A stretch of 64,000 nt of DNA, taken from contig CAYSZX010000002.1 of the NCBI GenBank assembly GCA_964435835.1, forward strand, positions 8,282 through 72,281, given 5' to 3'. Origin of the DNA: an uncultured Candidatus Saccharibacteria bacterium. Its GTDB lineage: Bacteria > Patescibacteriota > Minisyncoccia > Minisyncoccales > JANBVM01. A program made the translations under genes and the position numbers. Below, one piece after another: positions 4,444 to 62,837 of this stretch. Each line of letters begins with the position of its first letter. The stretch's first letter is position 1. The notes below the pieces were generated by a model. The model did not search any database and had not been told where the DNA came from. It was given only the letters and a program-made list of their open reading frames with translations.

Positions 4444-4530
4444 ATTGTTTATCTTATCATTATTTTTTAAAAAATAAAATTAACATAAAAGATCTTTTTT
4501 TTTACTCCTAAATGTGGCAAGATAAATAAT

Positions 4531-5934
4531 ATGTTAAAGTTCTACAACACCCTTACTAAGAAAAAAGAAGAATTCAAGCCCTCAAAAGATAAAGAGGTTG
4601 ATCTTTATACTTGTGGTCCAACTGTTTATTGGTTTGCTCATGTTGGAAACCTAAGAACTTATATTTTTGAAGATTTATTAAAAAGGACTTTAAAATATAA
4701 TGACTATAAAGTAAATCATGTTATGAATATTACTGATGTTGGTCATTTAACTTCAGATTCTGATGGAGGAGAAGATAAAATGGTTAAAGCTTTAAAAAGA
4801 GAAGGTAAAGAATTAAACGAAGAATCTATTTTAGAAATTGCTGATTATTATACTAAAGCTTTTAAAAAGGATTTGGGTTTATTAAATATTCAATACCCCG
4901 ATGTTTTTTGCAAGGCTACAGAAACTATTCCGGAGCAAATAGAGCTAGTAAAAAAGATAATTGAAAATGGCTATGCTTATGAAACAGATCAAGCTGTTTA
5001 TTTCGATACTCATAAATTAGAAAGCTATACAGAGTTAGCCAATCAAGACCTAAAAGGTCTTCAAGAAGGAGTAAGTATTGAAAAGAAAAAAGACAAAAAG
5101 AATCCTACTGATTTTGCCTTATGGATTAAACTAAAGGGCGAACATAAAAATCATATTATGAATTGGGATTCTCCTTGGGGAAAAGGATTTCCTGGTTGGC
5201 ATGTTGAATGTTCAGCTATGAGTATTAAATATTTAGGGGAAGAAATAGACATTCATTGTGGGGGCATTGATCACATTCCAGTTCATCATACCAATGAAAG
5301 GGCTCAAAATATTGCCGCTCTTGGAAAACCAGTAGTTAGATTTTGGATGCATGGAGAATTTCTGATTTCAAAAGAAGAAAAAATGTCAAAGTCAAAAGGT
5401 AACATCATGACTATAGCAGAACTAACAGAAAAAGGAATTGATCCTCTTGCCTACCGCTATTTATGTCTTAATGCCCATTATCGTTCTAAATTATCTTTTT
5501 CTTTAGAATCTTTAAAAAATGCAGAACATTCTTTAGAAAATTTAAAAGAAGAAACAAGAAAATTAAAAAAGGAGAAAGACAATTCTCAAAAAACAAGTTC
5601 TGGAGAATATTTAAAAAAGTTTAAATCTTTTGTTAATGACGATTTAGATATTCCAAAGGCTTTAGCTTTGGCCTGGAAAACGATTAAGGATGATGAAATT
5701 AGCAGCAATGAAAAGTATAATCTTTTAATTGAATTCGATAAGGTTTTTGGTTTAGGGTTAAAAGATATTAAAGAGATAAAAATTCCTGAGGAAGTTAGAA
5801 AGCTAGTTCAAAAAAGAGAAAAATATAGAAAAGAAAAAGAATGGAAAGAAGCTGATAAGGTAAGAAAAAAAATAAATAAATTGGGCTTTAAAGTTGAAGA
5901 CACCCAAAAAGGTTCTCTTATCAAAAAGAAATAA
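4531..5934 (+). CDS. cysS: cysteine--tRNA ligase
   Basis: Class I motifs HVGNLRTY and KMSKSKGN, plus the CysRS core GWHVECSAM. Confidence 0.95.
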
Positions 5935-31906: not shown

Positions 31907-33865
31907 ATGAAGATTTTTGAATTTATCTTTAACCCCAAACAAAAAGAAGATTTAATCTTCGATAGTTTTTGTTATAAGCCGGAAAATATTTATGAGAAAA
32001 ACAAAGGGCATCTTTGCATGGTTGGCCTTCTTAGAAATGCTTTACCTACTAATCTTTATCTTATTAAAAAAATAGCTAGAACAATTAAAGATCAATATTT
32101 TAGATCTACTGACTCAAACCTTCAAACTGCTTTTAAAAGAGGCTTAAAAGAAGTAAACAATTTTCTTTCTAAAAAAGCAGACAGAGGAGATACAAGTTGG
32201 CTTGGAGATTTAAGTTTTTTAGCTCTTTCTTTAAAAAAATATAGTTTAATTTTTTCAAAAACAGGCGATATTAAAGTTTTAGTTGTTAGAGACAACAATG
32301 TTGTTGATATTGATAAAAAGACACAATATAATGAAACCTCTCCTTATCCTATCAAACCTTTTGCTAGAGCTATTTCAAGTAAATTAGCTAAAAAAGATTT
32401 AATTTTAATTTTTACTAGGCAGGTTTATGATTTTTTTAAAAAAGAAGGATTGTTAGAAAAAATTATAGAACCTTCCTATTTTAATGAAAAGAAAATAAAA
32501 AAGATTTTAAATAAAAGAAAAAAGAAAGTAGCTAAAGTTAAAGGTGTTTTTCTTGGTATTTCTTTAAAAGAATTAAAAGAAGGAAGTTCGCAAAAGACAA
32601 CATTAAAGAAGTTAAAAAGTGTTCCTTTTAAAGAGATATTTACCTCTTTTCTTGACTCTTTAAAAAAGTTTGAGTTTCCAAAAATAAACTTTCATTTTCC
32701 AAAGAAAAAGAAAAGAAATTTAAAGCTCAAAGCTTTTGATAGGGATTTATCATTTTTTTCAAGGAAAATAAAACCTCTTTTTTCTAAGAAAAAGATTTTA
32801 ATAATAGCTCCAATAATTATTTTGGCTCTCGGGACTGCCTTTTTCTTTTTTCAAAAAGATAAAAGAATTAAAGACTATCAAACCGAATTAATAGAAATAG
32901 AAAGAAAGATTTCAGAAGCTAATGAACTTTACAATTCAAAGGAACTAAAAAAAGCTAACGAATTGTTTCAAGAATCTTGGGTTCAACTTACCGATTTAAA
33001 AACTAAATCTGAGGGTTTTTCGGAAGAACTAACTAATTCTATAACTACTTCAAAAGAAAAGATTGAACCAGAATTATTTGATTTAAATAATGTTAAAGAA
33101 ATTAAAGAACCTAATTTGTTTTTTAACTTTGCAGAAATGGATTTTTCTCCCGAAAGAATTTTATCTTTTAATGATAGGCTTTATTTCTTTAATTCAAAGA
33201 TCAAAAAAGTTTTCTATTTAAATAAAGACAAAGAACCTAAAAACATAAATGTAAATTATAATCTAAATGAGTCAACTTTAATTGATAACTCTATAGTTTT
33301 CTTCTCAAAGCCTGATAAGTTAACGATTTTAAAAGGTTATTTTCCTGGCTACTATTCTTTAAGTTCTTATCCTTCCGATTTCAATTTTGATTTTTTATCT
33401 TCTTTTAGAAATAATATTTACTTTTTAAACAAAATAACTGGAAGAATTATTAAATATCCCTATTTAGGCAATAATCAATGGGGTTCTTTCCAAGAATGGT
33501 TGTCTTCTGATTCTTACTATCAAAATAATATTAATGCCGAATCTTTTGCTATTGATAGATCTATTTGGGTTTTAAATAATAACACAATTTATGAATATTA
33601 TACTGGTGAATTAAAAAACGAAATTAATTTAGACCTCTTCCCTACTATTAAATCTTTTTCTAAGATTTATACTTCTCCAGAATTGTCGAATATTTATATT
33701 TTAGAACCTAAGCAAAAAAGGATTATTATAATTGATAAAGCAGGAGAAGTTATTAGACAGATTCGAAGTGATAAATTTAATAATCTTTTAGATTTAAGTG
33801 TTTTAAGTAATGAAGAAGTCCTCTACTTATTAAACAAACCAAAGATTTATAGTATTGACTTATAA
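31907..33865 (+). CDS. large membrane-anchored hypothetical protein (degenerate PP2C/SpoIIE-like N-domain, TM, coiled coil, repeat-rich C-domain)
   Basis: 652 aa. The N-terminal ~200 aa have a PP2C-like strand pattern (LSFLALSL...SKTGDIKVLVVRD) without metal-binding Asp residues. The TM segment is ILIIAPIIILALGTAFFFF. The C-terminal ~250 aa are beta-rich and Y/F/N-rich. Confidence 0.45.
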   Translation: MKIFEFIFNPKQKEDLIFDSFCYKPENIYEKNKGHLCMVGLLRNALPTNLYLIKKIARTIKDQYFRSTDSNLQTAFKRGLKEVNNFLSKKADRGDTSWLGDLSFLALSLKKYSLIFSKTGDIKVLVVRDNNVVDIDKKTQYNETSPYPIKPFARAISSKLAKKDLILIFTRQVYDFFKKEGLLEKIIEPSYFNEKKIKKILNKRKKKVAKVKGVFLGISLKELKEGSSQKTTLKKLKSVPFKEIFTSFLDSLKKFEFPKINFHFPKKKKRNLKLKAFDRDLSFFSRKIKPLFSKKKILIIAPIIILALGTAFFFFQKDKRIKDYQTELIEIERKISEANELYNSKELKKANELFQESWVQLTDLKTKSEGFSEELTNSITTSKEKIEPELFDLNNVKEIKEPNLFFNFAEMDFSPERILSFNDRLYFFNSKIKKVFYLNKDKEPKNINVNYNLNESTLIDNSIVFFSKPDKLTILKGYFPGYYSLSSYPSDFNFDFLSSFRNNIYFLNKITGRIIKYPYLGNNQWGSFQEWLSSDSYYQNNINAESFAIDRSIWVLNNNTIYEYYTGELKNEINLDLFPTIKSFSKIYTSPELSNIYILEPKQKRIIIIDKAGEVIRQIRSDKFNNLLDLSVLSNEEVLYLLNKPKIYSIDL

Positions 33866-37326: not shown

Positions 37327-37354
37327 AAATTTAAAAAAATTAAATAATAAACGG

Positions 37355-37428
37355 AGCCTGAGAGCGGAGTTGCACCGCTGGCCTCGTCTTTACCAAAGAC
37401 GTGCTCTAACTAACTGAGCTACCCAGGC
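37355..37428 (-). tRNA. tRNA-Thr (anticodon GGU); non-canonical A18/G55
   Basis: Manual cloverleaf of 74 nt: acceptor GCCUGGG/CUCAGGC, D-loop AGUUAGUUA, anticodon loop UUGGUAA, T-arm AGCGG-UGCAACU-CCGCU. Confidence 0.8.
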
Positions 37429-42622: not shown

Positions 42623-45600
42623 ATGAATTTTACTCACCTACATGTTCATACTCACTATTCTCTTTTAGATGGACTTCCTAAAATAGATGAACTTTTAGAT
42701 CACGTTAAAGAATTAGGAATGGACTCAGTAGCAATTACTGATCATGGAGTTCTTTATGGAGCCATTGAATTTTATAAGAAAGCTAAAAAGAAAGGAATTA
42801 AACCAATCATTGGATCTGAAATGTATATGGCTTATGAAGGAATGGAACAACAAAGACCTAATATTGATAATAAAAGATATCATTTAGTTTTACTGGTAAA
42901 AAACAAAAAGGGTTATAAAAACCTAGTTAAACTAATAACCAAAGCTCACCTAGAGGGATTTTACTATAAACCAAGAATTGACGAAAAATTACTAGCTAAA
43001 CATTCAGAAGGACTAATTGGTTTAACTGCTTGCGTTCAGGGTAAAGTTCCTCAATTAATTATTGCTGGTAAATATGAGGAAGCAAAAAAAGCTGCTTTAA
43101 AATATCAAGAAATACTTGGAAAAGGCAACTTTTATTTAGAAATTCAACGTCATCCTAATATAGAAAATCAAAAAATTGCCAATGAGGGAATAATTAAACT
43201 TTCGCAAGAATTAGATATTCCTTTAATAGCAACCAATGATTCTCATTATTTGAAACCCGAAGACGCGGAAGCTCAAGATATATTAATGTTAATTAACACC
43301 GGGGCTGATTTAGATGATCCCGAACGATTAACAATGAAGATGGATGATTTTTCTATTGGGTCTCCAGAAAAAATGATGAAAGATTTTAAAGAACATCCAG
43401 AAGCTATTAAAAACACTCAGGAAATTGTAAAAAAATGTAATTTTGAATTTGAATTAGGTAAAACAAAACTTCCTGCTTTTGAAACACCAGACGGACAATC
43501 AGCTAAAGAATATCTAAGAGAATTATGCTTAAAAGGAATTAAAAAATTCTATGGAGAAAATCCAGGCAAAGAAGTAATGAATAGATTAAACCATGAATTA
43601 AAAATTATTGATGAAATGGGTTTTTCTGCTTATTTTTTAATTGTTCAAGATTTTGTTAAATGGGCCAGAGAACAAAGAATTGTTGTCGGACCAGGCAGAG
43701 GATCAGCTGGCGGCTCAATCGTTGCTTACACTACAGAAATTACTACAATTGATCCAATTAAATGGGGACTTCTCTTTGAAAGATTCTTAAATCCAGCTAG
43801 AGTATCAATGCCTGATATTGATTTAGATTTTACTGACAGAAGAAGAGATGAAGTAATGAATTATGTTGCTGAAAAATATGGCAGAGATCATGTTGCTCAA
43901 ATTTGTACTTTTGGAACTATGGCCGCAAGAGGTTCAATTAGAGATGTTGGTAGATCTTTGGGGTATAGTTATGATTTCTGTGACCGAATTGCAAAAATGA
44001 TTCCAACAGGTTCTAGTTTAGATGAAGCTTTGGAAAAAGTTACTCAATTAAGAAATCTTTATGAGACTAGAGGAAAAGTAAAAAAACTAATCGATCTTTC
44101 AAAGAAGCTAGAAGGAGTTAATCGTCATATTTCTACTCATGCTTGTGCTGCAGTAATTGCAAAAAACCCTTTAGACGATATAGTTCCTCTTCAACACCCT
44201 AGTCAAAGCAAAAAGGAAATTATTACTCAATATGAAATGCATGGCATTGAAGACCTAGGTCTTCTTAAAATGGATTTCTTAGGTTTAAAAAATTTAACAA
44301 TTATTGAAGATACTTTAGCTAGAATTTATGCAGTTCGCCATGAAAGTATAGATATTAATAAAATTCCTTTAGATGATGAAAAAACCTACAAATTACTTCA
44401 AAAAGGAAAAACAATAGGAGTTTTTCAATTAGAATCAGCTGGTTTTAGAAAATATTTAAAACAATTAGAGCCAACTAGCTTAGAAGATGTTATTGTTATG
44501 ATTGCTTTATACCGACCTGGCCCAATGTCTTTTATTCCCGAATATATTGGAAGAAAGAAAGGAGAAAGAGAGGTTAAATATATTCATCCGAAATTAGAAA
44601 AGATTTTAAATAAAACCTATGGATTGCCTGTTTATCAGGAAGATTTAATGAAAATAGCTCAGGAATTAGCTGGGTTCAGTCTTTCTGAAGCTGATATTTT
44701 AAGAAAAGCAATAGGAAAGAAAATCCGTTCTTTATTAATGAAACAAAAGAAAAAGCTTATTCAGGGGATGAGAGACAATGGAATCAGTGAAAAAGTAGCT
44801 CAAAAGATATGGGAATGGATATTACCTTTTGCCCAGTATGGATTTAATCGTAGTCATTCCTGTGCTTATGCTTTTATTGCTTATCAAACAGCTTACCTTA
44901 AAGCTAATTATCCAGTTGAATTCATGTCTGCTTTATTAACATCAGAAAAGTCTGATGTCGATAGAATTGGTGATTTGATTCAGGAATGTGAAAAAATGGG
45001 AATTGAGGTTTTGGCTCCCGACATTAATGAAAGCTGGAGAAACTTTACCGTGGTTCCTGAAACTAACAAAATCAGGTTTGGTTTATTAGCAGTAAAGAAC
45101 GTTGGAGCTAAAATTGTTGAATCAATTGTTCAAGAAAGAAAAGAAAATGGACCTTTTAAATCAATGAACGGCTTTGCCACTCGAATTAAACCAAAAGACT
45201 TAAATAAAAGAGCCTTGGAAAGCTTGATCAAAGCAGGAGCTTTTGACGAATTTAAAGAAAGAAATTTATTGTTAAAAAATATTCCAACAATTACTGAAAG
45301 AAGTCGAGAAAAAGCAAAGAAACAAAAAACTGGTCAAAAAGGTCTTTTTGCAGGGATGAAGTTTGATGAAAAGCTTAATTTTCAACCCGCTGATCCAGTT
45401 ACTGATGAACAAAAACTATTATGGGAAAAAGAGCTTTTAGGATTATTTATTAGCTCTCATCCTCTAGATGAATTTGACCAAGTGTTAGAAAAAGAAACTA
45501 CTGAAATTTCTGAGCTTGGTTCTATAAAAAGCAATAGAGCAACAGTTGGGGGTATTATTTTAAAAATAAAAAAGATAATTACCAAAAGAACCAAAAAACC

Positions 45601-45787
45601 AATGTGTTTTCTTACTTTAGAAGATTTATCCGGAAGAGTTGAAGTCGTAGTCTTCCCTTCTATTTATGATAAATATTTTGATTTATTAGAAGAAAATAAT
45701 ATTGTTTTAATTAGTGGTAAGATAGACAGAAAAGAAGATACTCCTAAAATACTTTGTGGTGAAATTAAAGCAATCAAAGAAGCTTGA
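42623..45787 (+). CDS. dnaE: DNA polymerase III alpha subunit
   Basis: PHP domain FTHLHVHTHYSLLDG, the polymerase core (GPGRGSAGGS, PDIDLDF), an HhH, and an OB fold; 1054 aa. Confidence 0.95.
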   Translation: MNFTHLHVHTHYSLLDGLPKIDELLDHVKELGMDSVAITDHGVLYGAIEFYKKAKKKGIKPIIGSEMYMAYEGMEQQRPNIDNKRYHLVLLVKNKKGYKNLVKLITKAHLEGFYYKPRIDEKLLAKHSEGLIGLTACVQGKVPQLIIAGKYEEAKKAALKYQEILGKGNFYLEIQRHPNIENQKIANEGIIKLSQELDIPLIATNDSHYLKPEDAEAQDILMLINTGADLDDPERLTMKMDDFSIGSPEKMMKDFKEHPEAIKNTQEIVKKCNFEFELGKTKLPAFETPDGQSAKEYLRELCLKGIKKFYGENPGKEVMNRLNHELKIIDEMGFSAYFLIVQDFVKWAREQRIVVGPGRGSAGGSIVAYTTEITTIDPIKWGLLFERFLNPARVSMPDIDLDFTDRRRDEVMNYVAEKYGRDHVAQICTFGTMAARGSIRDVGRSLGYSYDFCDRIAKMIPTGSSLDEALEKVTQLRNLYETRGKVKKLIDLSKKLEGVNRHISTHACAAVIAKNPLDDIVPLQHPSQSKKEIITQYEMHGIEDLGLLKMDFLGLKNLTIIEDTLARIYAVRHESIDINKIPLDDEKTYKLLQKGKTIGVFQLESAGFRKYLKQLEPTSLEDVIVMIALYRPGPMSFIPEYIGRKKGEREVKYIHPKLEKILNKTYGLPVYQEDLMKIAQELAGFSLSEADILRKAIGKKIRSLLMKQKKKLIQGMRDNGISEKVAQKIWEWILPFAQYGFNRSHSCAYAFIAYQTAYLKANYPVEFMSALLTSEKSDVDRIGDLIQECEKMGIEVLAPDINESWRNFTVVPETNKIRFGLLAVKNVGAKIVESIVQERKENGPFKSMNGFATRIKPKDLNKRALESLIKAGAFDEFKERNLLLKNIPTITERSREKAKKQKTGQKGLFAGMKFDEKLNFQPADPVTDEQKLLWEKELLGLFISSHPLDEFDQVLEKETTEISELGSIKSNRATVGGIILKIKKIITKRTKKPMCFLTLEDLSGRVEVVVFPSIYDKYFDLLEENNIVLISGKIDRKEDTPKILCGEIKAIKEA

Positions 45788-45788
45788 T

Positions 45789-45816
45789 TTGACAATAATT
45801 CTCTCTCATTTACAAT
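45789..45816 (+). promoter_or_regulatory. candidate promoter of the thrS leader; -10 ends 6 nt before the leader-peptide ATG
   Basis: TTGACA (45789-45794), 16-nt spacer, TACAAT (45811-45816). Confidence 0.4.
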
Positions 45817-45822
45817 AAGTCT

Positions 45823-45891
45823 ATGTTAATTAGTTATCGAAAAATTAAAAAAAGAACTTCTGTTATTACCACCACTAAGAACCCTTTTTGA
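45823..45891 (+). CDS. candidate thrS leader peptide (22 aa, 4 Thr codons, 3 consecutive)
   Basis: ATG TTA ATT AGT TAT CGA AAA ATT AAA AAA AGA ACT TCT GTT ATT ACC ACC ACT AAG AAC CCT TTT TGA = MLISYRKIKKRTSVITTTKNPF. The stop lies inside the antiterminator 5' strand. Confidence 0.5.
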   Translation: MLISYRKIKKRTSVITTTKNPF

Positions 45892-45959
45892 AAGAGGTTG
45901 ATTTTTCCCAATCATGATTATTCTAATTAGCCTCTTTCAAAAGGGGCTTTGTTTTTATT
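45882..45959 (+). promoter_or_regulatory. terminator/antiterminator attenuator upstream of thrS
   Basis: The terminator is an 8-bp stem (45929-45936 pairing with 45941-45948), loop UCAA, then UUGUUUUUAUU. The alternative helix pairs 45882-45897 (CCCUUUUUGAAAGAGG) with 45931-45946 (CCUCUUUCAAAAGGGG): 16 bp including one G.U. Confidence 0.6.
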
Positions 45960-45965
45960 AAAAGA

Positions 45966-47714
45966 ATGTTTTTTATGTTAAAATTAATAAATAAAATTAT
46001 GAAATCAAAAATAGAAAAAATTCGTCATTCCTTAGCTCATGTTTTAGCTGCCGCTGTTCAAGAACTTTACCCTAAAGTTAAGTTTGGTATCGGACCAGCT
46101 ATAGATAATGGTTTTTATTATGATTTTGAATTTCCAAAATCTATAAGTGAAGACAATTTATCAAAAATAGAAAAGAAAATGAAAGAAATAATCAAAAAAG
46201 ACATTTCTTTCAAAAAAGTTAAATTAAATGAAAAAGAGATAGAAGAAAAATTCAAAAATCAACCCTACAAGCAAGAACTAATAGAAGAATTAGAAGAAAA
46301 GCCTACTTTTTATAAAAGTGGTGATTTTATTGATCTTTGTAAGGGATCTCACGTCAAATCAACTAAAGAAATAAATCCTAAAGCTTTTAAATTAGAAAAA
46401 ATTGCGGGAGCTTATTGGAAAGGAGATGAAAATAATAAAATGTTAACTAGAATATATGGATTAGCATTTGAAACAGAAAAGGCATTAAAAGAGTATTTAG
46501 ACTTTCAAGAAGAAGCTAAAAAGAGAGATCATGTCCGTTTAGGTAAAAAAATGAAACTATTTTTATTTGATGAAAAAGTTGGACCAGGACTACCTATTTG
46601 GCAACCAAAAGGAGCAACCCTTATTCAAATAATGAAAGATTATTTAAAAGAAGAATTAATTAAAGAAAATTATAAGTGGTTAATTACTCCTCACATAGGG
46701 AAAATTGATATTTGGAAAACTTCTGGCCATTGGGATTTTTATCAAGATAGCCTTTATTCTCCTATGGAAATTGACGAAGATAAATACATTGTTAAGCCCA
46801 TGAATTGCCCTTTTCATATCAAAGTTTACAAATCAGAGATAAGAAGCTATAGAGATTTACCTATTAAATACGCTGAATTTGGAACTGTTTATCGTTATGA
46901 GAAATCAGGCGAATTACATGGTTTAACAAGAGTAAGAGGATTTACTCAAGATGATGCTCATGTTTGGTGTACAGAAGATCAATTATTTAAAGAAATAGAA
47001 AAATTATTAAAGCATAGCTTCCACATCTTTAATGTCTTTGGTTTTGAAGAATTCCAAGTTTACCTTTCAACTCGTCCTGATAAATATATAGGAACAGAAA
47101 AGAAATGGGAAAAAGCTACAGAAGCTTTAAAAAAGACTTTAAAGAAAGAAAGTATTGATTTCTTAATAGACGAAGGAGGAGGTGCTTTTTATGGTCCTAA
47201 AATTGATATTAAAGTTAAAGATTCTTTAGGAAGAGCTCATCAATGCACAACTATTCAAATAGATTTCAACTTACCAGAAAGATTTGAAATGTTTTACATT
47301 AACGAAAAAGGAGAAAAACAACGACCATTTATGATTCATCGAGCATTGCTTGGTTCTTTTGAAAGATTTTTGGGTGTTTTACTAGAAAACTATGGAGGAG
47401 AGCTACCTCTTTGGTTATCTCCAAAACAAATGTGGGTTATTCCAATCAGTTCAAAGAATTTAGAATACGCTCAAAAAGTTCAAGAAAGACTTCAAGAAAA
47501 TAAATTCAGATCAGTTTTAAAGGATGAAGACGAAACTCTTTCCAAAAAAATAAGAAAAGGAGAAATTCAAAAGATACCTTATCTTTTAGTGGTTGGCGGA
47601 AAAGAAGAAAAAAATAAAACAATCAGTCCAAGATATAAAGGAAAAGATCTAGGTTCAATGAAATTAAAAAAATTCATTAATGAAAGAAAGACAGATATTA
47701 AAAATAAAAAATAA
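45966..47714 (+). CDS. thrS: threonine--tRNA ligase (no N-terminal TGS domain)
   Basis: It starts directly in the editing/second-additional domain (IRHSLAHVLAAAV...GPAIDNGFYYDFE), with class II motifs (RDHVRLGK, FRYE.SG, HRALLGSFERF). Alternative starts are at 45975 and 45999. Confidence 0.95.
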   Translation: MFFMLKLINKIMKSKIEKIRHSLAHVLAAAVQELYPKVKFGIGPAIDNGFYYDFEFPKSISEDNLSKIEKKMKEIIKKDISFKKVKLNEKEIEEKFKNQPYKQELIEELEEKPTFYKSGDFIDLCKGSHVKSTKEINPKAFKLEKIAGAYWKGDENNKMLTRIYGLAFETEKALKEYLDFQEEAKKRDHVRLGKKMKLFLFDEKVGPGLPIWQPKGATLIQIMKDYLKEELIKENYKWLITPHIGKIDIWKTSGHWDFYQDSLYSPMEIDEDKYIVKPMNCPFHIKVYKSEIRSYRDLPIKYAEFGTVYRYEKSGELHGLTRVRGFTQDDAHVWCTEDQLFKEIEKLLKHSFHIFNVFGFEEFQVYLSTRPDKYIGTEKKWEKATEALKKTLKKESIDFLIDEGGGAFYGPKIDIKVKDSLGRAHQCTTIQIDFNLPERFEMFYINEKGEKQRPFMIHRALLGSFERFLGVLLENYGGELPLWLSPKQMWVIPISSKNLEYAQKVQERLQENKFRSVLKDEDETLSKKIRKGEIQKIPYLLVVGGKEEKNKTISPRYKGKDLGSMKLKKFINERKTDIKNKK

Positions 47715-48930: not shown

Positions 48931-51129
48931 ATGAAAAAGTATTTTATTCAAACTTATGGTTGCCAACAAAACGAATCTGATTCTGAACGAATAGCTTCTG
49001 TTTTAAAAAAGATGAATTACAAGTCTGCTTCATCAAAAAATGAAGCTGATTTAATTATAGTAAACGCTTGTTCTATAAGAGAATCAGCAATTGATAGAAT
49101 GAGAGGATTAGCTTCCAAATTAAAGAAATTAAAAGAAAAAAATTCAAAAATTAAGACAATTTTAACGGGTTGCTTACTTAAAAAATCAAAAAAAGAATTT
49201 AAAAATTACTTTGATTTTATTTTACCTATAAAAACTCTTCAAAATTGGTCTGAAATATTAAAAAAAGAAAAAGCCTACCCTTTCTTTAATCCAAGGGATA
49301 AGAAGTTTAATAAAGAGTTTGGTGTGGACTATTTTGATATTAAGCCCAATAGAGAAAATAAATATTCCGCTTTAATCTCTATTTCTTCTGGTTGTAATAA
49401 TTTTTGCTCTTATTGTGTAGTTCCCCGCACCCGTGGACCTTTAATCTGTAGAGAGCATGAAAAAATAATTAATGAAGCTAAAAAAGCAATTAAAAAAGGA
49501 GTCAAAGAAATATGGCTTCTTGGAGAAAATGTTAATGATTACAAATCTCCAAGCAATAAATCAATTAATTTTGCTAAATTGTTAGAAAAAATAGATACCC
49601 TTCTAGGAAATTTCTGGATTAGATTTACTAGTCCGCACCCTAAAAACTTTTCACAGGAATTAATAGATCAACTTGCTAAAACTAAAAAGTTAGCTAAATA
49701 TATTCATGTTCCTGTTCAGTCTGGCAACAATCAAATTTTAAAAAGAATGAGTAGGTCTTATACTATCCAGAACTATAAAAAAATTATTAAGGAAATAAGA
49801 GAAAAAATACCAGACGTAGCTATTTCAACCGATATTATTGTTGGTTTTCCTGGCGAAACAAAAGAACAATTCAAAGACACTTTAAAATTATTCAAAGAAT
49901 TGAAATTTGATATGGCTTATATAGCAGAATATTCTGAAAGAAACGAAACAAAAGCAGCAGAAATGGAAAATAACATTTCTTTTCAAGAGAAAAAAAGAAG
50001 AAAGAAAAAACTTACTAGAATTTTAAAAGAGACTGCTTTAGAGAACAATAAGAAATATGTTGGTAAAATAGTTAAAGTTTTAATTGATAAAGAAACTAAA
50101 GAGTTTTTATATGGAAAAACTGAAAAATACAAGACAGTTAAAATTCAAAAAGATAAAATCACTGCTTTGGGAAGTTTTGCCAAAGTAAAAATAAAGAAAG
50201 CTCTTCCTTGGGGATTAAAAGGAGAAAAGGTTCCTCCTAAATTAGTAGTTGTTTTAGGGCCCACAGCTTCTGGAAAAACTGAAACAAGTATTAAATTAGC
50301 TCAAAAATTTAACGGAGAAATTGTTTCAGCTGATTCTAAACAGGTTTATAAGGAAGTATCTATTGGAACAGCTAAACCAACCGAAAAAGAAAGAAAAGCT
50401 GTTAAACATCATTTAATTGACTTTATTTCTCTGGAGAAAGACTTTAATGTGGCTAAGTATAAAAAACTTGCCCTAAAGGCTATTAAGAAGGTCTTAAAGA
50501 AAGAAAAACAGCCCTTTTTAGTCGGAGGTTCTGCTCTTTACATTAAATCAGTAGTCAAAAATTTTTCTTTAACCGAAACTCCACCCAACAAGAAGCTGCG
50601 AAAGAAACTTAGTAATAAAAGTGTAAAAGAGCTTTTTGAAATTTACAAGAAATTAGATCCAAAAGGAGCTAAAAAAATAGCAAAAGAAAATAAAAGAAGA
50701 TTAATAAGAGCTATAGAGGTTTGCGAGGAAAGCGGTAAATCTTTTTGGCAACAAAGAAAAAAGAAAAATCCTTTATTTGATGTTTTTAAAATTGGTATTA
50801 AACCTAATAAGAAAAAACTAAAAGAAAGAATAACCAAAAGGACAGAAAAAATGTTTAAACAAGGATTAGAAAAAGAAGCCATTAAAATAATTAAAAAAAT
50901 GGGTCCGTGCCCTTCTCTCAAAATAATTGGATATCAAGAATGGTTCCCTTTTTATCCTGATTTTTCTATTACTGAAAAAGACAGAGAAAAAGTAAAAGAA
51001 AAAATCATCCTTCATACTTTACAATTTAGTAAAGATCAGATGACTTGGTACAAAAAAGATAAGGAAATTAACTGGGTGCAAAATTACAAAGAAGCAAAAG
51101 AATTAATCCAAAAATTTTTAAGAAATTAA
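48931..51129 (+). CDS. miaB-miaA: fusion protein: MiaB (tRNA-i6A37 methylthiotransferase) N-terminal ~430 aa plus MiaA (tRNA dimethylallyltransferase) C-terminal ~300 aa
   Basis: MiaB part: YGCQQNESDSE (UPF0004), radical SAM CNNFCSYC, and a TRAM domain (VGKIVKVLID...). MiaA part: VVLGPTASGKT, SADSKQVYKEVSIGTAKP, HHLIDF. It is a single uninterrupted 732-codon ORF. Confidence 0.85.
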   Translation: MKKYFIQTYGCQQNESDSERIASVLKKMNYKSASSKNEADLIIVNACSIRESAIDRMRGLASKLKKLKEKNSKIKTILTGCLLKKSKKEFKNYFDFILPIKTLQNWSEILKKEKAYPFFNPRDKKFNKEFGVDYFDIKPNRENKYSALISISSGCNNFCSYCVVPRTRGPLICREHEKIINEAKKAIKKGVKEIWLLGENVNDYKSPSNKSINFAKLLEKIDTLLGNFWIRFTSPHPKNFSQELIDQLAKTKKLAKYIHVPVQSGNNQILKRMSRSYTIQNYKKIIKEIREKIPDVAISTDIIVGFPGETKEQFKDTLKLFKELKFDMAYIAEYSERNETKAAEMENNISFQEKKRRKKKLTRILKETALENNKKYVGKIVKVLIDKETKEFLYGKTEKYKTVKIQKDKITALGSFAKVKIKKALPWGLKGEKVPPKLVVVLGPTASGKTETSIKLAQKFNGEIVSADSKQVYKEVSIGTAKPTEKERKAVKHHLIDFISLEKDFNVAKYKKLALKAIKKVLKKEKQPFLVGGSALYIKSVVKNFSLTETPPNKKLRKKLSNKSVKELFEIYKKLDPKGAKKIAKENKRRLIRAIEVCEESGKSFWQQRKKKNPLFDVFKIGIKPNKKKLKERITKRTEKMFKQGLEKEAIKIIKKMGPCPSLKIIGYQEWFPFYPDFSITEKDREKVKEKIILHTLQFSKDQMTWYKKDKEINWVQNYKEAKELIQKFLRN

Positions 51130-59701: not shown

Positions 59702-61732
59702 TTATTTTCTTACTTCCCAATTTATATTATTTTCTAAATTTTCAACTATTTTATTATGTAATTTGTCTATCTCATCAGAAGACAAAGTCTTCTCTTGAGA
59801 TTGATAAACAATATGAAAAGCTAAACTCTTTTTTTCATCAGATATTTTCTCATAAATATCAAACAAATCAACGTCATTTATTAACTCCTTTCCCGTATTA
59901 TTTATTACATTTAACACTTCTATTACTTTAACTTTCCGAGGAACTATAATAGATAAATCCCTAACCGCTGTTGGATAAGGAGAAACAGGCTGGTATTCAT
60001 TTTCTTCGGTCATTAATTCCTGTAAAATTTCAAAATCAATATCAAACATTACCACTTTCCCCTTTATATTTAAAGACTTCAAAATTCTTTCTGAGATATG
60101 ACCAATAAAACCAACCTCTTTATTATTAATTCTAATTTCAGCTGATTTATTAATATTCCAAATAGACATTTTACTTTCTTCCGGAGTTGCTTCGTAAGTA
60201 TCATAATAATAATTACTAATTCCCAGTTTTTCCAACAAAACATCAATAATTCCTTTGAGATTGTAAAAAGATTCACTATCTTTCTTTTGAGCAATAAATC
60301 CAGCTAAAGCTTCTTTTTCTCTAGACTTTTTAAATATCTTTCCCAATTCAAATACCTGGAATCTATCAAAATTTTTAAAACCTTCTTTAACATTTTCTAG
60401 AAGATTTGGAATTAAGCTTGGTCGTAAATATTGATATTCAGCACTAATCGGATTATCTGTTTCAACCAATTCTTCTTTTTTATAATCAAATAAATCAGCT
60501 TGGGTTTGATTAATAAAAGAATAATTATAAATCTCAGTAAATTTTAGTTCTTTTAATATGTCTTTAGTTTTATCTTTCCAAAAAATATTGACATTCCTTT
60601 CAGGAAAAGATAAATCTCCAGCAGGAAACCTTTCAGGAATCTTTTGATAACCATAAAGTCTGCCAATCTCTTCAATCAAATCAGCTGGAAGCTTAACATC
60701 TAATCTAAAAGTAGGTATTTCTACTTTAATAACCTCCTTCTTTTCATCTAAAACTTTAAAATGACCTCTTTCTAAAAGATCAACAATTTTCTTTTGAGAA
60801 ATATCTATCCCTAATAAGCTTTGAACGTTTTTCACTCTTAAATTAATATTCCATGGTGATTTTTTCCGAGGATAGATATCAATAACACCCGAAGCTATTT
60901 TTCCTTTGGCTAATTTCTGGATTAATTGAGCCGATCTATCAATAGCTTTTTTAGTTAAATTAGGATCTAATCCATGTTCAAAAACCCAAGAAGCATCTGT
61001 TTTTAAATTAATTTTCTTTGACCCTTTTCTAATTAATGTTCCATCAAAATTAGCTGATTCGATAATAATTACTTTTGTTGAATCAGTAATTCCGGCCTTA
61101 TTACCACCTTTCACTCCAGCAATACCAAGAGGGTCTTTCGGATCGCTAATAATTAAAACATCTTCGTCTAAAAGATATTCTTTATTATCAAAACTAGTAA
61201 CTTTTTCTTTTTCTTTTGCCCGCCTAACGATAATTTTTTGATCAGATATCTTGTCAGCATCAAAGGCATGAAGGGGTTGTCCAGTTTCCAACATTACATA
61301 ATTTAAACTATCAACTACATTATTAATTGGTTGTAAACCCAAAGACTTCAATCTATCCTTCATCCACCTAGGAGAAGGTTTAATTTTTAAATTAGTAATA
61401 GTACGAGCCGTATAACGTAAACAATCTTTTTTATCTTTTATTTCGACATCTATTAAATCTTTTGTTTTCTGACTTTTGTTTTCTTTTAAATCAAATTCTT
61501 TATCTTTTAAATCGAAATCTAAAATAGAAGCAATTTCTCTTGCTATTCCTAAATGACAAAGACAATCAGATCCCCTGTTAGGTCGTACATCTATATCCAG
61601 TAATACATCATCTTCCTTAGTAATAATTTCATCAACTTCAAAACTATGCAAAACAATCAGTTTTGCTAATTTATCTACTTTGGGTAATTTTTTATTAAAA
61701 AATGTTTGTAACCAATTATAGGAAAATAACAT
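59702..61732 (-). CDS. pheT: phenylalanine--tRNA ligase beta subunit (lacks the N-terminal OB-fold tRNA-binding domain)
   Basis: MLFSYNWLQ...FEVDEI runs directly into LDIDVRPNRGDCL; B3/4, B5 and FDX-ACB-like regions are present. It is 676 aa, versus about 790 aa typically. Confidence 0.9.
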   Translation of the reverse strand: MLFSYNWLQTFFNKKLPKVDKLAKLIVLHSFEVDEIITKEDDVLLDIDVRPNRGSDCLCHLGIAREIASILDFDLKDKEFDLKENKSQKTKDLIDVEIKDKKDCLRYTARTITNLKIKPSPRWMKDRLKSLGLQPINNVVDSLNYVMLETGQPLHAFDADKISDQKIIVRRAKEKEKVTSFDNKEYLLDEDVLIISDPKDPLGIAGVKGGNKAGITDSTKVIIIESANFDGTLIRKGSKKINLKTDASWVFEHGLDPNLTKKAIDRSAQLIQKLAKGKIASGVIDIYPRKKSPWNINLRVKNVQSLLGIDISQKKIVDLLERGHFKVLDEKKEVIKVEIPTFRLDVKLPADLIEEIGRLYGYQKIPERFPAGDLSFPERNVNIFWKDKTKDILKELKFTEIYNYSFINQTQADLFDYKKEELVETDNPISAEYQYLRPSLIPNLLENVKEGFKNFDRFQVFELGKIFKKSREKEALAGFIAQKKDSESFYNLKGIIDVLLEKLGISNYYYDTYEATPEESKMSIWNINKSAEIRINNKEVGFIGHISERILKSLNIKGKVVMFDIDFEILQELMTEENEYQPVSPYPTAVRDLSIIVPRKVKVIEVLNVINNTGKELINDVDLFDIYEKISDEKKSLAFHIVYQSQEKTLSSDEIDKLHNKIVENLENNINWEVRK

Positions 61733-61733
61733 A

Positions 61734-62762
61734 TTAAAATTGATTTAAAAACTTCAAATCACTACTATAGAAAAGCCTGATATCGTTTATTTTATATTTA
61801 ATCATTGCTAATCTATCAACTCCAACTCCGAAAGCAAAACCCTGCCATTCTTTAGGATTAACTCCTGAATTCTTAAGAACGTTAGGGTGAACCATTCCTG
61901 CCCCTAAAAGCTCTAACCAACCAGTTCCGCTGCAAGTACTGCACTTCTCTCCTTCTCCTTCACAAACAGGACAAGTACAATCAATTTCAAAAGAAGGTTC
62001 AGTAAAAGGAAAATAGCCAGGTCTAAAACGTGTTTTTATATCCTCATCTTTAAAAAATCTTCTTAAAGAATCAGTCATAATAGTTTTAAGATTGACCACT
62101 GAAACATCTTTATCAACCATCAAGCCCTCAAATTGATAAAAGTTAATTTCATGCCTAGAATCTGTTGCTTCATGTCTAAAAACTCTTCCCGGGACAATAA
62201 TTTTTAATGGCGGTTGATTTTCTTCCATATATCTAACCTGGACAGGCGAAGTATGAGTTCGCATTAAAAATCTCCCTTTAGATGAAGCTTTTTTCTTTAA
62301 AAATAAGGTATCTTGAATATCACGAGCCGGATGATCTTTCTGGAAGTTCAAAGCATCGAAATTATACCATTCATTTTCTATTTGTGGCCCTTCCACTACT
62401 TCAAATCCTGCTTTTTGAAAAATATTAGTTATTTCTCTTTGAGTCTGAGTTAAAGGATGTAAATGACCAATAAGAGGTTTTCTACCAGGAATTGTAACGT
62501 CAATTCCTTTTTCTTTTTTATTACTTTCCAAGGCTAATTCTTTCTTTTTTTTCTCAAATAGTTTTTCTAATTTCTTTTTTAGTTTATTTGCCTTCTTCCC
62601 CTTCTTAATCCTTTCTTTTTCCGGTAAGTCTTTTAATCCTTTTAAAATTAAAGAAAGCTTCCCTTTTTTCCCTAAATAATCCTTAAAAACCCTATTTAAT
62701 TCTTTTAGGGTTTTTGCTTTTTCAATTCTTTTTTCCGCCTTAATTTTAATATTTCCAACCAT
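61734..62762 (-). CDS. pheS: phenylalanine--tRNA ligase alpha subunit
   Basis: HPL, MRTHTSPVQVR, FRPGYFPFTEPS, GAGMVHPNVL, GFAFGVGVDRL. Confidence 0.95.
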   Translation of the reverse strand: MVGNIKIKAEKRIEKAKTLKELNRVFKDYLGKKGKLSLILKGLKDLPEKERIKKGKKANKLKKKLEKLFEKKKKELALESNKKEKGIDVTIPGRKPLIGHLHPLTQTQREITNIFQKAGFEVVEGPQIENEWYNFDALNFQKDHPARDIQDTLFLKKKASSKGRFLMRTHTSPVQVRYMEENQPPLKIIVPGRVFRHEATDSRHEINFYQFEGLMVDKDVSVVNLKTIMTDSLRRFFKDEDIKTRFRPGYFPFTEPSFEIDCTCPVCEGEGEKCSTCSGTGWLELLGAGMVHPNVLKNSGVNPKEWQGFAFGVGVDRLAMIKYKINDIRLFYSSDLKFLNQF

Positions 62763-62837
62763 TTTTTTACTGTTTTAATTTTACCTTAAATAGGCTTAAA
62801 AAGCAACCTTAAAAAAGGCCTATTTTTTAACACTTTT

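Follow-up and report, generated by a model that had tools for sequence, protein, structure and literature searches.

We analysed a 64,000-nt stretch of contig CAYSZX010000002.1 (hereafter the window, meaning this stretch at its full length) and found, in the gap between dnaE and the threonyl-tRNA synthetase (ThrRS) gene thrS, what we predict to be a ribosome-mediated transcription attenuator. Translation of a short Thr-rich leader peptide would sense charged tRNA-Thr and thus control thrS, a reading to which we assign a probability of about 0.85 from the sequence, its relatives and structural modelling. The parts of the element and the gene it would regulate are the following.

45789–45816, forward strand: candidate sigma-70-type promoter (−35 box TTGACA at 45789–45794, 16-nt spacer, −10 box TACAAT at 45811–45816)
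45823–45891, forward strand: leader open reading frame (ORF) of 22 codons, ATG at 45823, TGA at 45889–45891, encoding MLISYRKIKKRTSVITTTKNPF followed by the stop
45868–45876, forward strand: putative regulatory Thr codons ACC ACC ACT (codons 16–18), at which the ribosome is proposed to stall when Thr-tRNA(Thr) is low
45882–45903, forward strand: antiterminator 5′ strand, which includes the stop TGA (45889–45891)
45882–45889, forward strand: antiterminator segment 1, the ORF end and first stop base
45890–45903, forward strand: antiterminator segment 2, the rest of the 5′ strand
45925–45946, forward strand: antiterminator 3′ strand, which contains the 5′ arm and loop of the terminator and the greater part of its 3′ arm
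45929–45948, forward strand: intrinsic terminator hairpin, 8-bp stem (45929–45936 with 45941–45948), loop UCAA
45949–45959, forward strand: U-rich terminator tail, TTGTTTTTATT, also given as TTGTTTTTAT
45999–47714, forward strand: thrS, the gene proposed to be regulated (Pfam; start probable from alignment of relatives)

The first-pass annotation of this DNA had described a TTGACA-16-TACAAT promoter between dnaE and thrS, a 22-codon ORF with tandem ACC ACC ACT and a canonical intrinsic terminator with an 8-bp stem and a UCAA loop, and all of these were found at the positions above, the terminator together with its tail TTGTTTTTAT. The promoter, which begins 2 nt past the dnaE stop codon, matches at 11 of 12 positions and is the top promoter-like site within 45000–46500. 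Fourteen of 18 related leaders have a near-consensus TTGACA at the equivalent position, 15–18 nt upstream of a −10 box. The ATG of the leader ORF starts 7 nt beyond the last base of the −10 box (6–10 nt in most family members, 6–14 nt overall) and has no Shine-Dalgarno sequence, so that the leader mRNA is probably leaderless and would start on the A of ATG 45823 or close to it.

The leader ORF ends inside a long helix. It had been proposed earlier that 45882–45897 pairs with 45931–45946 over 16 bp; the pairing itself stands, but the helix is longer, comprising 22 bp (45882–45903 with 45925–45946), of which 19 are Watson-Crick and three G-U. This helix forms the minimum-free-energy structure (−31.4 kcal/mol, z = −2.98; none of 200 shuffles was as stable) and ranks second among the inverted repeats of the whole 64-kb window. 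It overlaps the entire terminator, and the two helices are mutually exclusive. The 22-bp antiterminator was assigned −30.3 kcal/mol and the terminator alone −9.7 kcal/mol, while the downstream part of the antiterminator (45890–45903 with 45925–45938) reaches −16.6 kcal/mol by itself. Within the 5′ strand only a weak local hairpin can form (45883–45888 with 45892–45897, −3.4 kcal/mol), giving −13.0 kcal/mol together with the terminator. The final codons of the ORF (CCUCUUUUU in a sister group of leaders, CCCUUUUU in the group of the window) are approximately a copy of the terminator 5′ arm and pair with the terminator 3′ arm, the inner helix being stacked above.

To model the effect of ribosome position, a footprint of 28 nt, which began 15 nt before the first A-site base and ended 12 nt after it, was masked, and the probability of the terminator helix was then obtained from the partition function. 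For the window this probability was 0.00 without a ribosome and likewise 0.00 when one was stalled at any of the Thr codons, and it was 0.93 when the stop codon occupied the A site. These values bear out the idea put forward earlier that a ribosome stalled at the Thr codons leaves the antiterminator strand free and that one at the stop codon covers it. The switch was sharp in 16 of 18 leaders, with at most 0.03 at early Thr stalls and at least 0.90 at the stop. The equilibrium fold without a ribosome is the antiterminator in 17 of 18 leaders; in L116, unlike the rest of the family, the default is termination. Leaders of the window group have two spacer codons, Lys-Asn or Lys-Ser, that hold even the last Thr stall off the switch helix.

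The mechanism that we propose would run as follows. Transcription would begin at the promoter right after dnaE, at or beside the A of ATG 45823, and a ribosome would translate the 22-codon ORF close behind RNA polymerase. With plentiful Thr-tRNA(Thr) the ribosome would get to the UGA at 45889–45891, where its footprint (approximately 45874–45901) would mask the antiterminator 5′ strand (45882–45903); 45929–45948 could then fold as the terminator on emerging, and transcription would end in the U-tract (45949–45959). With scarce Thr-tRNA(Thr) the ribosome would stall with ACC, ACC or ACU (45868–45876) in its A site and its front at about 45880–45886, leaving at least 45887–45903 free to pair with 45925–45941, which includes the entire terminator 5′ arm. 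The terminator would be blocked, and the polymerase would continue into thrS (45999), resulting in more ThrRS. We infer that transcription and translation are coupled in this way and that termination and read-through do occur in the cell.

Homologs of the leader were sought through a ThrRS search of genome and metagenome collections, which yielded 160 loci, and short ORFs with Thr runs were looked for in the 450 nt upstream of each thrS. Conservation of the mini-ORF and its Thr run in relatives had been named beforehand as a test, and both recur upstream of thrS at 19 other distinct loci, all in Nealsonbacteria-like Parcubacteria, which with the window makes 20. The number of consecutive Thr codons ranges from two to eight across the loci and from five to eight in the sister group. 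The leader peptides are listed here by locus.

L001: MSKNLSNRITTTTTTS
L024: MLICLKKFNITTTTTSF
L081, an example of the sister group with its 5–8 Thr: MIKFTITTTTTTTTSF
L100: MAKSLEANITATTTTSL
L108: MRKISSKLTTTTTSF
L113: MLSYLRKFNITTTTTSF
L116: MRKNTTTTTTTRA
L117: MLVIFRKLTLTTTTTSF
L118: MCKSLENFNTTIITTTTTSSRVS
L122: MDDIRKNLTTFTTATTTTSF
L161, homologous to the peptide of the window: MLVTYRKTKKRITVITTTKNPF
L162, homologous to the peptide of the window: MLITHRKIKKRIAIITTTKNLF
L164, homologous to the peptide of the window: MIFVYKIKITTKNPF
L165, homologous to the peptide of the window: MLIAYKKITTITTTKSPFARG
L166, homologous to the peptide of the window: MLKKITITLTTKSPF
L168 and L169: MISEFITTTTTTTTSL, MISEIRTTTTTTTTSL
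L170 and L171: MKAPTLTNAITTTTTS, MVKFLKNLATTTTTSF

The L161–L166 group and L168–L171 come from contigs that encode the closest ThrRS proteins. Among 11 protein relatives whose contigs were examined (64–79% identity), ten have the leader, the seven closest included. The loci share a common plan: a promoter precedes an ORF with a Thr run, the stop codon of this ORF falls within the 5′ strand of a long hairpin, and the 3′ strand of the hairpin takes in both arms of a terminator. Each of the 20 loci has an ORF running from ATG to stop, 18 have a canonical hairpin with 4–7 consecutive U behind it, and the element ends 40–270 nt before the thrS start. The other fetched loci held no further members. 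Some apparent candidates were discarded: L115/L120 (MKYLITTTLGFNTNPL), which has no terminator and no covariance-model match and appears to be a chance ORF, and L082 and L131, which seem to be either chance ORFs or part of the upstream gene.

Two variations on this plan were observed. L116 (2392–2500; MRKNTTTTTTTRA) carries a variant attenuator, in which the Thr codon run itself pairs with a downstream GU-rich GUGGUUUUGUUGU, giving a classical four-segment design. In L024, L081, L108, L117, L122 and L171 additional spacers of 100–270 nt with GC-richer hairpins, absent from the window group, lie between terminator and thrS; they may represent repeat insertions or further regulatory RNA.

Both helices show covariation. 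An alignment of all leaders made with MAFFT mis-registers the inner helix, and we replaced it by covariance-model and subclade alignments and by an alignment-free chimera test. Compensatory changes, to which the first-pass annotation had pointed as a check on the helices, were found in each. In the subclade of the window (six sequences) 93.7% of antiterminator cells are paired, with double changes in four of 22 pairs, and 93.8% of terminator cells, with double changes in two of eight pairs; both helices exceed every slid control. One compensatory pair changes G-C to A-U between the second stop-codon base and the terminator loop, and another changes U-A to C-G through a synonymous UUU to UUC change of a Phe codon in L164. 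In L166 a C to U change in the terminator 5′ arm (column 68) goes along with matching changes in columns 34 and 83, its two alternative partners. In the family-wide alignment of 17 sequences, which was fitted to a covariance model and is hence biased towards structure, double changes occur in 12 of 23 antiterminator pairs, none of 500 shuffles equals the covariation score, and the terminator is 96.9% paired. An A to G change in the terminator 3′ arm between subclades is fully compensated at the leader end (U-A in 11, C-G in six) and is answered in the terminator 5′ arm by no more than a wobble pair (U-A in 11, U-G in five). In the chimera test, cognate 5′ and 3′ halves averaged −26.8 kcal/mol versus −18.8 kcal/mol for chimeras (permutation p < 5e-5).

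The Thr runs are specific to this position and strand. Upstream of thrS, 140 distinct regions (42.6 kb) were screened for short sense-strand ORFs beginning with ATG; wherever these contained four or more identical residues in a row, the residue was Thr, which was the case at nine loci. The antisense strand of the same regions gave no Thr run of this length, only two Leu runs, and none was found in a 1.08-Mb control comprising the remaining locus sequence on both strands. Within successive ACN triplets A and C are invariant and the third base varies (ACA 35, ACU 32, ACC 31 and ACG 1 across the leaders), the hallmark of triplets that are read as codons. A covariance model trained on nine leaders of the sister group, with the window excluded, had its best match in the 64 kb of the window at 45862–45962 on the forward strand (35.6 bits, E ~2.4e-6) and also recovered L116, which was absent from the training set. 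Given the enrichment specific to Thr, this match by a model that had not seen the window, and the covariation, the predicted leader is more than a product of chance.

The distance between the terminator and the gene depends on the start codon of thrS, which is probably ATG 45999 and not ATG 45966. The in-frame ATGs at 45966 and 45975 find no support among relatives, whose ThrRS proteins start with MAKIETIRHS or MKKIEKIRHS and align with the window protein from MKSKIEKIRHS onwards; in L161 and L165 the ATG equivalent to the upstream one runs into a stop codon. The U-tract had been placed 7 nt before the first thrS ATG, which is correct for the first in-frame ATG (45966) but not for the likely start, and with the start at 45999 the terminator would end about 40 nt before the gene. 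Between terminator and thrS, the window (45966–45998, forward strand), L161, L165 and L166 share a conserved AT-rich stretch, ATGTTAARATTAATAA, that forms a second tiny ORF (MLKLINK, or MLRLINSKK and MLLINN each followed by a stop). The tiny ORF of the window, at 45966, shares the thrS reading frame and is where NCBI places the gene start (579-aa protein); in L161 and L165 the ORF is terminated by a stop. The stretch might be a promoter-like or translation-related element.

Several points weigh against an attenuator that senses Thr-tRNA. The window has only three tandem Thr codons and its close relative L164 two. There is no Shine-Dalgarno sequence, so that translation of the mini-ORF would hang on the presumed leaderless start. 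Without a ribosome the window RNA strongly prefers the antiterminator (−30.3 vs −13.0 kcal/mol), and classical super-attenuation would therefore need a kinetic trap, for which the weak 45883–45897 hairpin (−3.4 kcal/mol) would have to serve. A classical upstream protector hairpin was considered and set aside, this weak hairpin being the only one available; a strong four-segment design is found in L116 alone. The terminators of L001 and L100 are weak (−5.2 and −3.1 kcal/mol) and their modelled switch is unconvincing. In many relatives (55–66% ThrRS identity) dnaE and thrS nearly abut and there is no leader, and thus the element is clade-restricted and dispensable. The whole case is built from sequence, comparison and thermodynamic modelling, and we know of no study of transcription-translation coupling in bacteria of the Candidate Phyla Radiation (CPR).

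Four other explanations were weighed. The absence of the leader from many relatives would fit a hairpin and U-tract that are a plain dnaE terminator beside an ordinary thrS promoter, with a mini-ORF and Thr codons that arose by chance in AT-rich intergenic DNA. The terminator does lie downstream of dnaE and would also end dnaE transcripts, and chance short ORFs with three Thr exist, as L082, L131 and L115/L120 seem to be. However, the promoter sits upstream of the terminator, so its transcripts must cross it; ATG-framed runs of 4–8 Thr, and of no other amino acid, recur in independent loci, against none in the 1.08-Mb control; and the stop codon always falls within the 5′ strand of the co-varying helix that competes with the terminator. 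We strongly disfavour this explanation and hold it to be highly improbable. It is very doubtful, too, that a stall sensing Thr-tRNA would act through an output other than intrinsic termination, such as Rho-dependent polarity, mRNA stability, or a trans-acting small RNA (sRNA) or peptide. The canonical hairpin with its 4–7 U in 18 of 20 loci speaks against it, as does an alternative pairing that targets precisely this hairpin; what speaks for it are the weak hairpins of L001 and L100 and the precedent of Sinorhizobium, in which sRNAs and leader peptides from attenuators have functions in trans (PMC6614838, PMC7298713).

The first of the two remaining explanations dispenses with the ribosome. 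If the element were a T-box-like sensor, the ACN run would consist of specifier codons read by the anticodon of uncharged tRNA-Thr, and the tRNA would stabilise the antiterminator. Such a sensor would share its physiological logic and output with the thrS and thrZ T-boxes of Bacillus subtilis, and a UGGU in some inner-helix 5′ strands (L081, L001, L169, L161) could pair with the NCCA end, but this motif is unconserved (window GGUUGAUU, L100 and L108 GGCUAGUU, L024 GGUCAACU), and no stem I, specifier loop or T-box sequence is present. The earlier remark that no T-box consensus is seen agrees with our Rfam searches: at E ≤ 10 neither a T-box (RF00230) nor another significant family was found in 45600–46100, and at gathering score there was no T-box in the whole window or in 17 related leader-bearing loci, none of which is matched by any Rfam 15 family. 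A T-box or other known RNA family was accordingly rejected, Rfam having returned noise only (miRNA-like hairpin matches and the Thr_leader at 14 bits). In every case the Thr codons lie in frame, with an ATG 6–14 nt downstream of a −10 box ahead of them and a stop inside the switch helix behind them, a layout that only translation requires, and we find a T-box-like sensor hardly credible. We think equally little of a ThrRS binding site resembling the Escherichia coli thrS operator, where the enzyme, bound to a tRNA-like hairpin, would promote termination or prevent translation. A conserved hairpin directly upstream of thrS and the precedent of E. coli ThrRS would suit such autoregulation; yet the inner hairpin loop varies in sequence and in length (5–21 nt) and has no conserved anticodon-like NGU motif, the element ends 40–270 nt before the thrS start and so could not occlude the ribosome-binding site, and the Thr-codon ORF would be left unexplained. 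A ThrRS-binding tRNA mimic was for its part rejected upon inspection of the hairpin loops, which are unconserved and show no anticodon-like motif.

In E. coli, ThrRS regulates its own gene, thrS, through a translational operator. This autoregulation is also mentioned in PMC2965389. The operator and the Gram-positive T-box, the two thrS controls listed by the first-pass annotation, stand as the established ones, but precedents for leader-peptide control of aminoacyl-tRNA synthetase genes are more numerous than it listed: trpS and leuS of Streptomyces (PMC1262725, which cites pheM-pheST as a precedent) and, added in 2010, hisS paralogues of Bacillus (PMC2965389), before which leader peptides had long been held to be confined to Proteobacteria and Actinobacteria (PMC2965389). 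In the literature searched, the only leader-peptide candidate for thrS was a weak one, thrL of Streptomyces lividans (MKRVRPFLETTPGFVPAR), which has two Thr only and no clear terminator, and for which the authors call termination unclear (PMC8079986). Full-text searches retrieved no report of a leader-peptide attenuator in CPR/Patescibacteria.

The closest parallel in design is pheM-pheST of E. coli, where a synthetase gene likewise has ahead of it a short ORF with tandem cognate codons and then antiterminator and terminator hairpins that exclude one another, and where low charged tRNA leads to stalling, read-through and more synthetase. It differs in amino acid and gene, has no sequence homology to the window element and belongs to Gammaproteobacteria rather than to Patescibacteria/CPR; moreover, the ORF described here has no Shine-Dalgarno and is probably leaderless, and its ribosome-free equilibrium is read-through. 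Enterobacterial thrL (Thr_leader, RF00506) also senses Thr-tRNA with a Thr run in a leader peptide and has an intrinsic terminator, but it controls thrABC for Thr biosynthesis and not thrS, and it senses Ile as well. The window scores 14 bits against this family (E = 6.3), short of the gathering score of 55, and is therefore outside it. Actinobacterial leaders (Streptomyces trpS2 and leuS, PMC1262725; S. lividans alaS, trpS, leuS and thrS, PMC8079986) are attenuators before synthetase genes on leaderless transcripts, as we propose here, although they are unrelated to the present family in sequence and lineage. Compared with the S. lividans thrS candidate, the family has runs of up to eight Thr and a canonical terminator, and it is backed by comparison across 20 loci. 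The B. subtilis thrS and thrZ T-boxes share the charging signal of tRNA-Thr, the gene and antitermination before an intrinsic terminator, but there the tRNA binds the RNA directly, whereas a translating ribosome is proposed here. Like the E. coli thrS operator, the element would be a cis-acting 5′ RNA that controls thrS; the operator, however, is a protein-binding tRNA mimic with anticodon-arm-like hairpins next to or overlapping the ribosome-binding site that blocks translation initiation, and the element has no conserved anticodon-like loop and ends at least 40 nt upstream of the thrS start.

The surroundings of the element are as follows. The DNA of the window is AT-rich, and the closest relatives of its ThrRS are from Candidatus Nealsonbacteria and other Parcubacteria (CPR/Patescibacteria), with 79% identity to metagenomic relatives and 67% to a complete Nealsonbacteria genome. 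The gene order dnaE, leader, thrS and a DUF5667 gene is kept in relatives. By Pfam, ThrRS has an SAD editing domain, a class II core and an anticodon-binding domain and no TGS domain; the enzymes of the window and its relatives (~570 aa) all lack the N-terminal TGS and open at the HxxxH motif of the editing domain (KIRHSLAH). DnaE of the window is 1054 aa long, without an intein, and in the close relative L164 (1–1317) dnaE encodes 1493 aa with an intein (Intein_splicing and LAGLIDADG domains). Besides thrS, the genes referred to here are these.

42623–45787, forward strand: dnaE (Pfam)
4531–5934, forward strand: cysS, another synthetase gene, with upstream region 4444–4530
59702–61732, reverse strand: pheT, another synthetase gene

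The 342-aa ORF that precedes pheT (61734–62762, reverse strand; upstream region 62763–62837) we take to be a putative pheS. A scan of all intergenic regions of the window gave no leader ORF with cognate codon runs upstream of cysS or of pheST (59702–62762, reverse strand), and the leader-peptide device is not general among the synthetase genes of this genome region. A gene for tRNA-Thr(GGU) lies at 37353–37428 on the reverse strand, clustered with those for tRNA-Tyr and tRNA-Trp, and this tRNA reads precisely ACC and ACU, the codons of the window leader. ACC accounts for 13% of the Thr codons in 15 long window genes, as against two of the three in the leader.

Further observations concern other loci of the window. 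An ORF of 732 aa (48931–51129, forward strand) fuses a MiaB-like methylthiotransferase (UPF0004, radical SAM and TRAM, residues 3–434) to a MiaA isopentenyl-tRNA transferase (IPPT, residues 471–710), two activities that catalyse successive steps of tRNA A37 modification; its counterparts in L168, L170 and L172 have ~423–441 aa and no IPPT domain. The sole cis-regulatory Rfam match in the window is a ribosomal protein L10 leader (RF00557; 34971–35085, reverse strand; 50 bits, gathering score 44), placed upstream of a putative rplJ-rplL. A 652-aa ORF (31907–33865, forward strand) has no Pfam match at E ≤ 0.001.

The concept of attenuation is textbook and itself unchanged by the window element; what is new is the target gene and the lineage, and the element is absent from Rfam. 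Well-supported uses of leader-peptide attenuation by synthetase genes are few, namely pheST and some trpS, leuS and hisS. On balance we lean, somewhat more than evenly, towards regarding the element as the founding example of a CPR-restricted family of Thr leader-peptide attenuators, the first well-supported one for thrS and the first for CPR, judged by the literature searched and by Rfam 15, with a leaderless mini-ORF and a switch that would be ON by default at equilibrium and repressed only by translating ribosomes. With its 20 loci the family would represent a third, independently evolved control of thrS beside the translational operator of E. coli and the Gram-positive T-box, and it would be placed in the Candidate Phyla Radiation, where gene regulation is barely known and genetics is not yet possible. 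At ~140 nt it would also be a compact, portable Thr-responsive switch. It would imply that ribosomes follow close behind RNA polymerase and that charged tRNA-Thr is monitored in cells that probably import amino acids. If true, tight transcription-translation coupling and leaderless initiation by 70S ribosomes would operate in these ultra-small, amino-acid-auxotrophic symbionts, and the element would offer a sequence-defined handle on how they sense host-supplied threonine.

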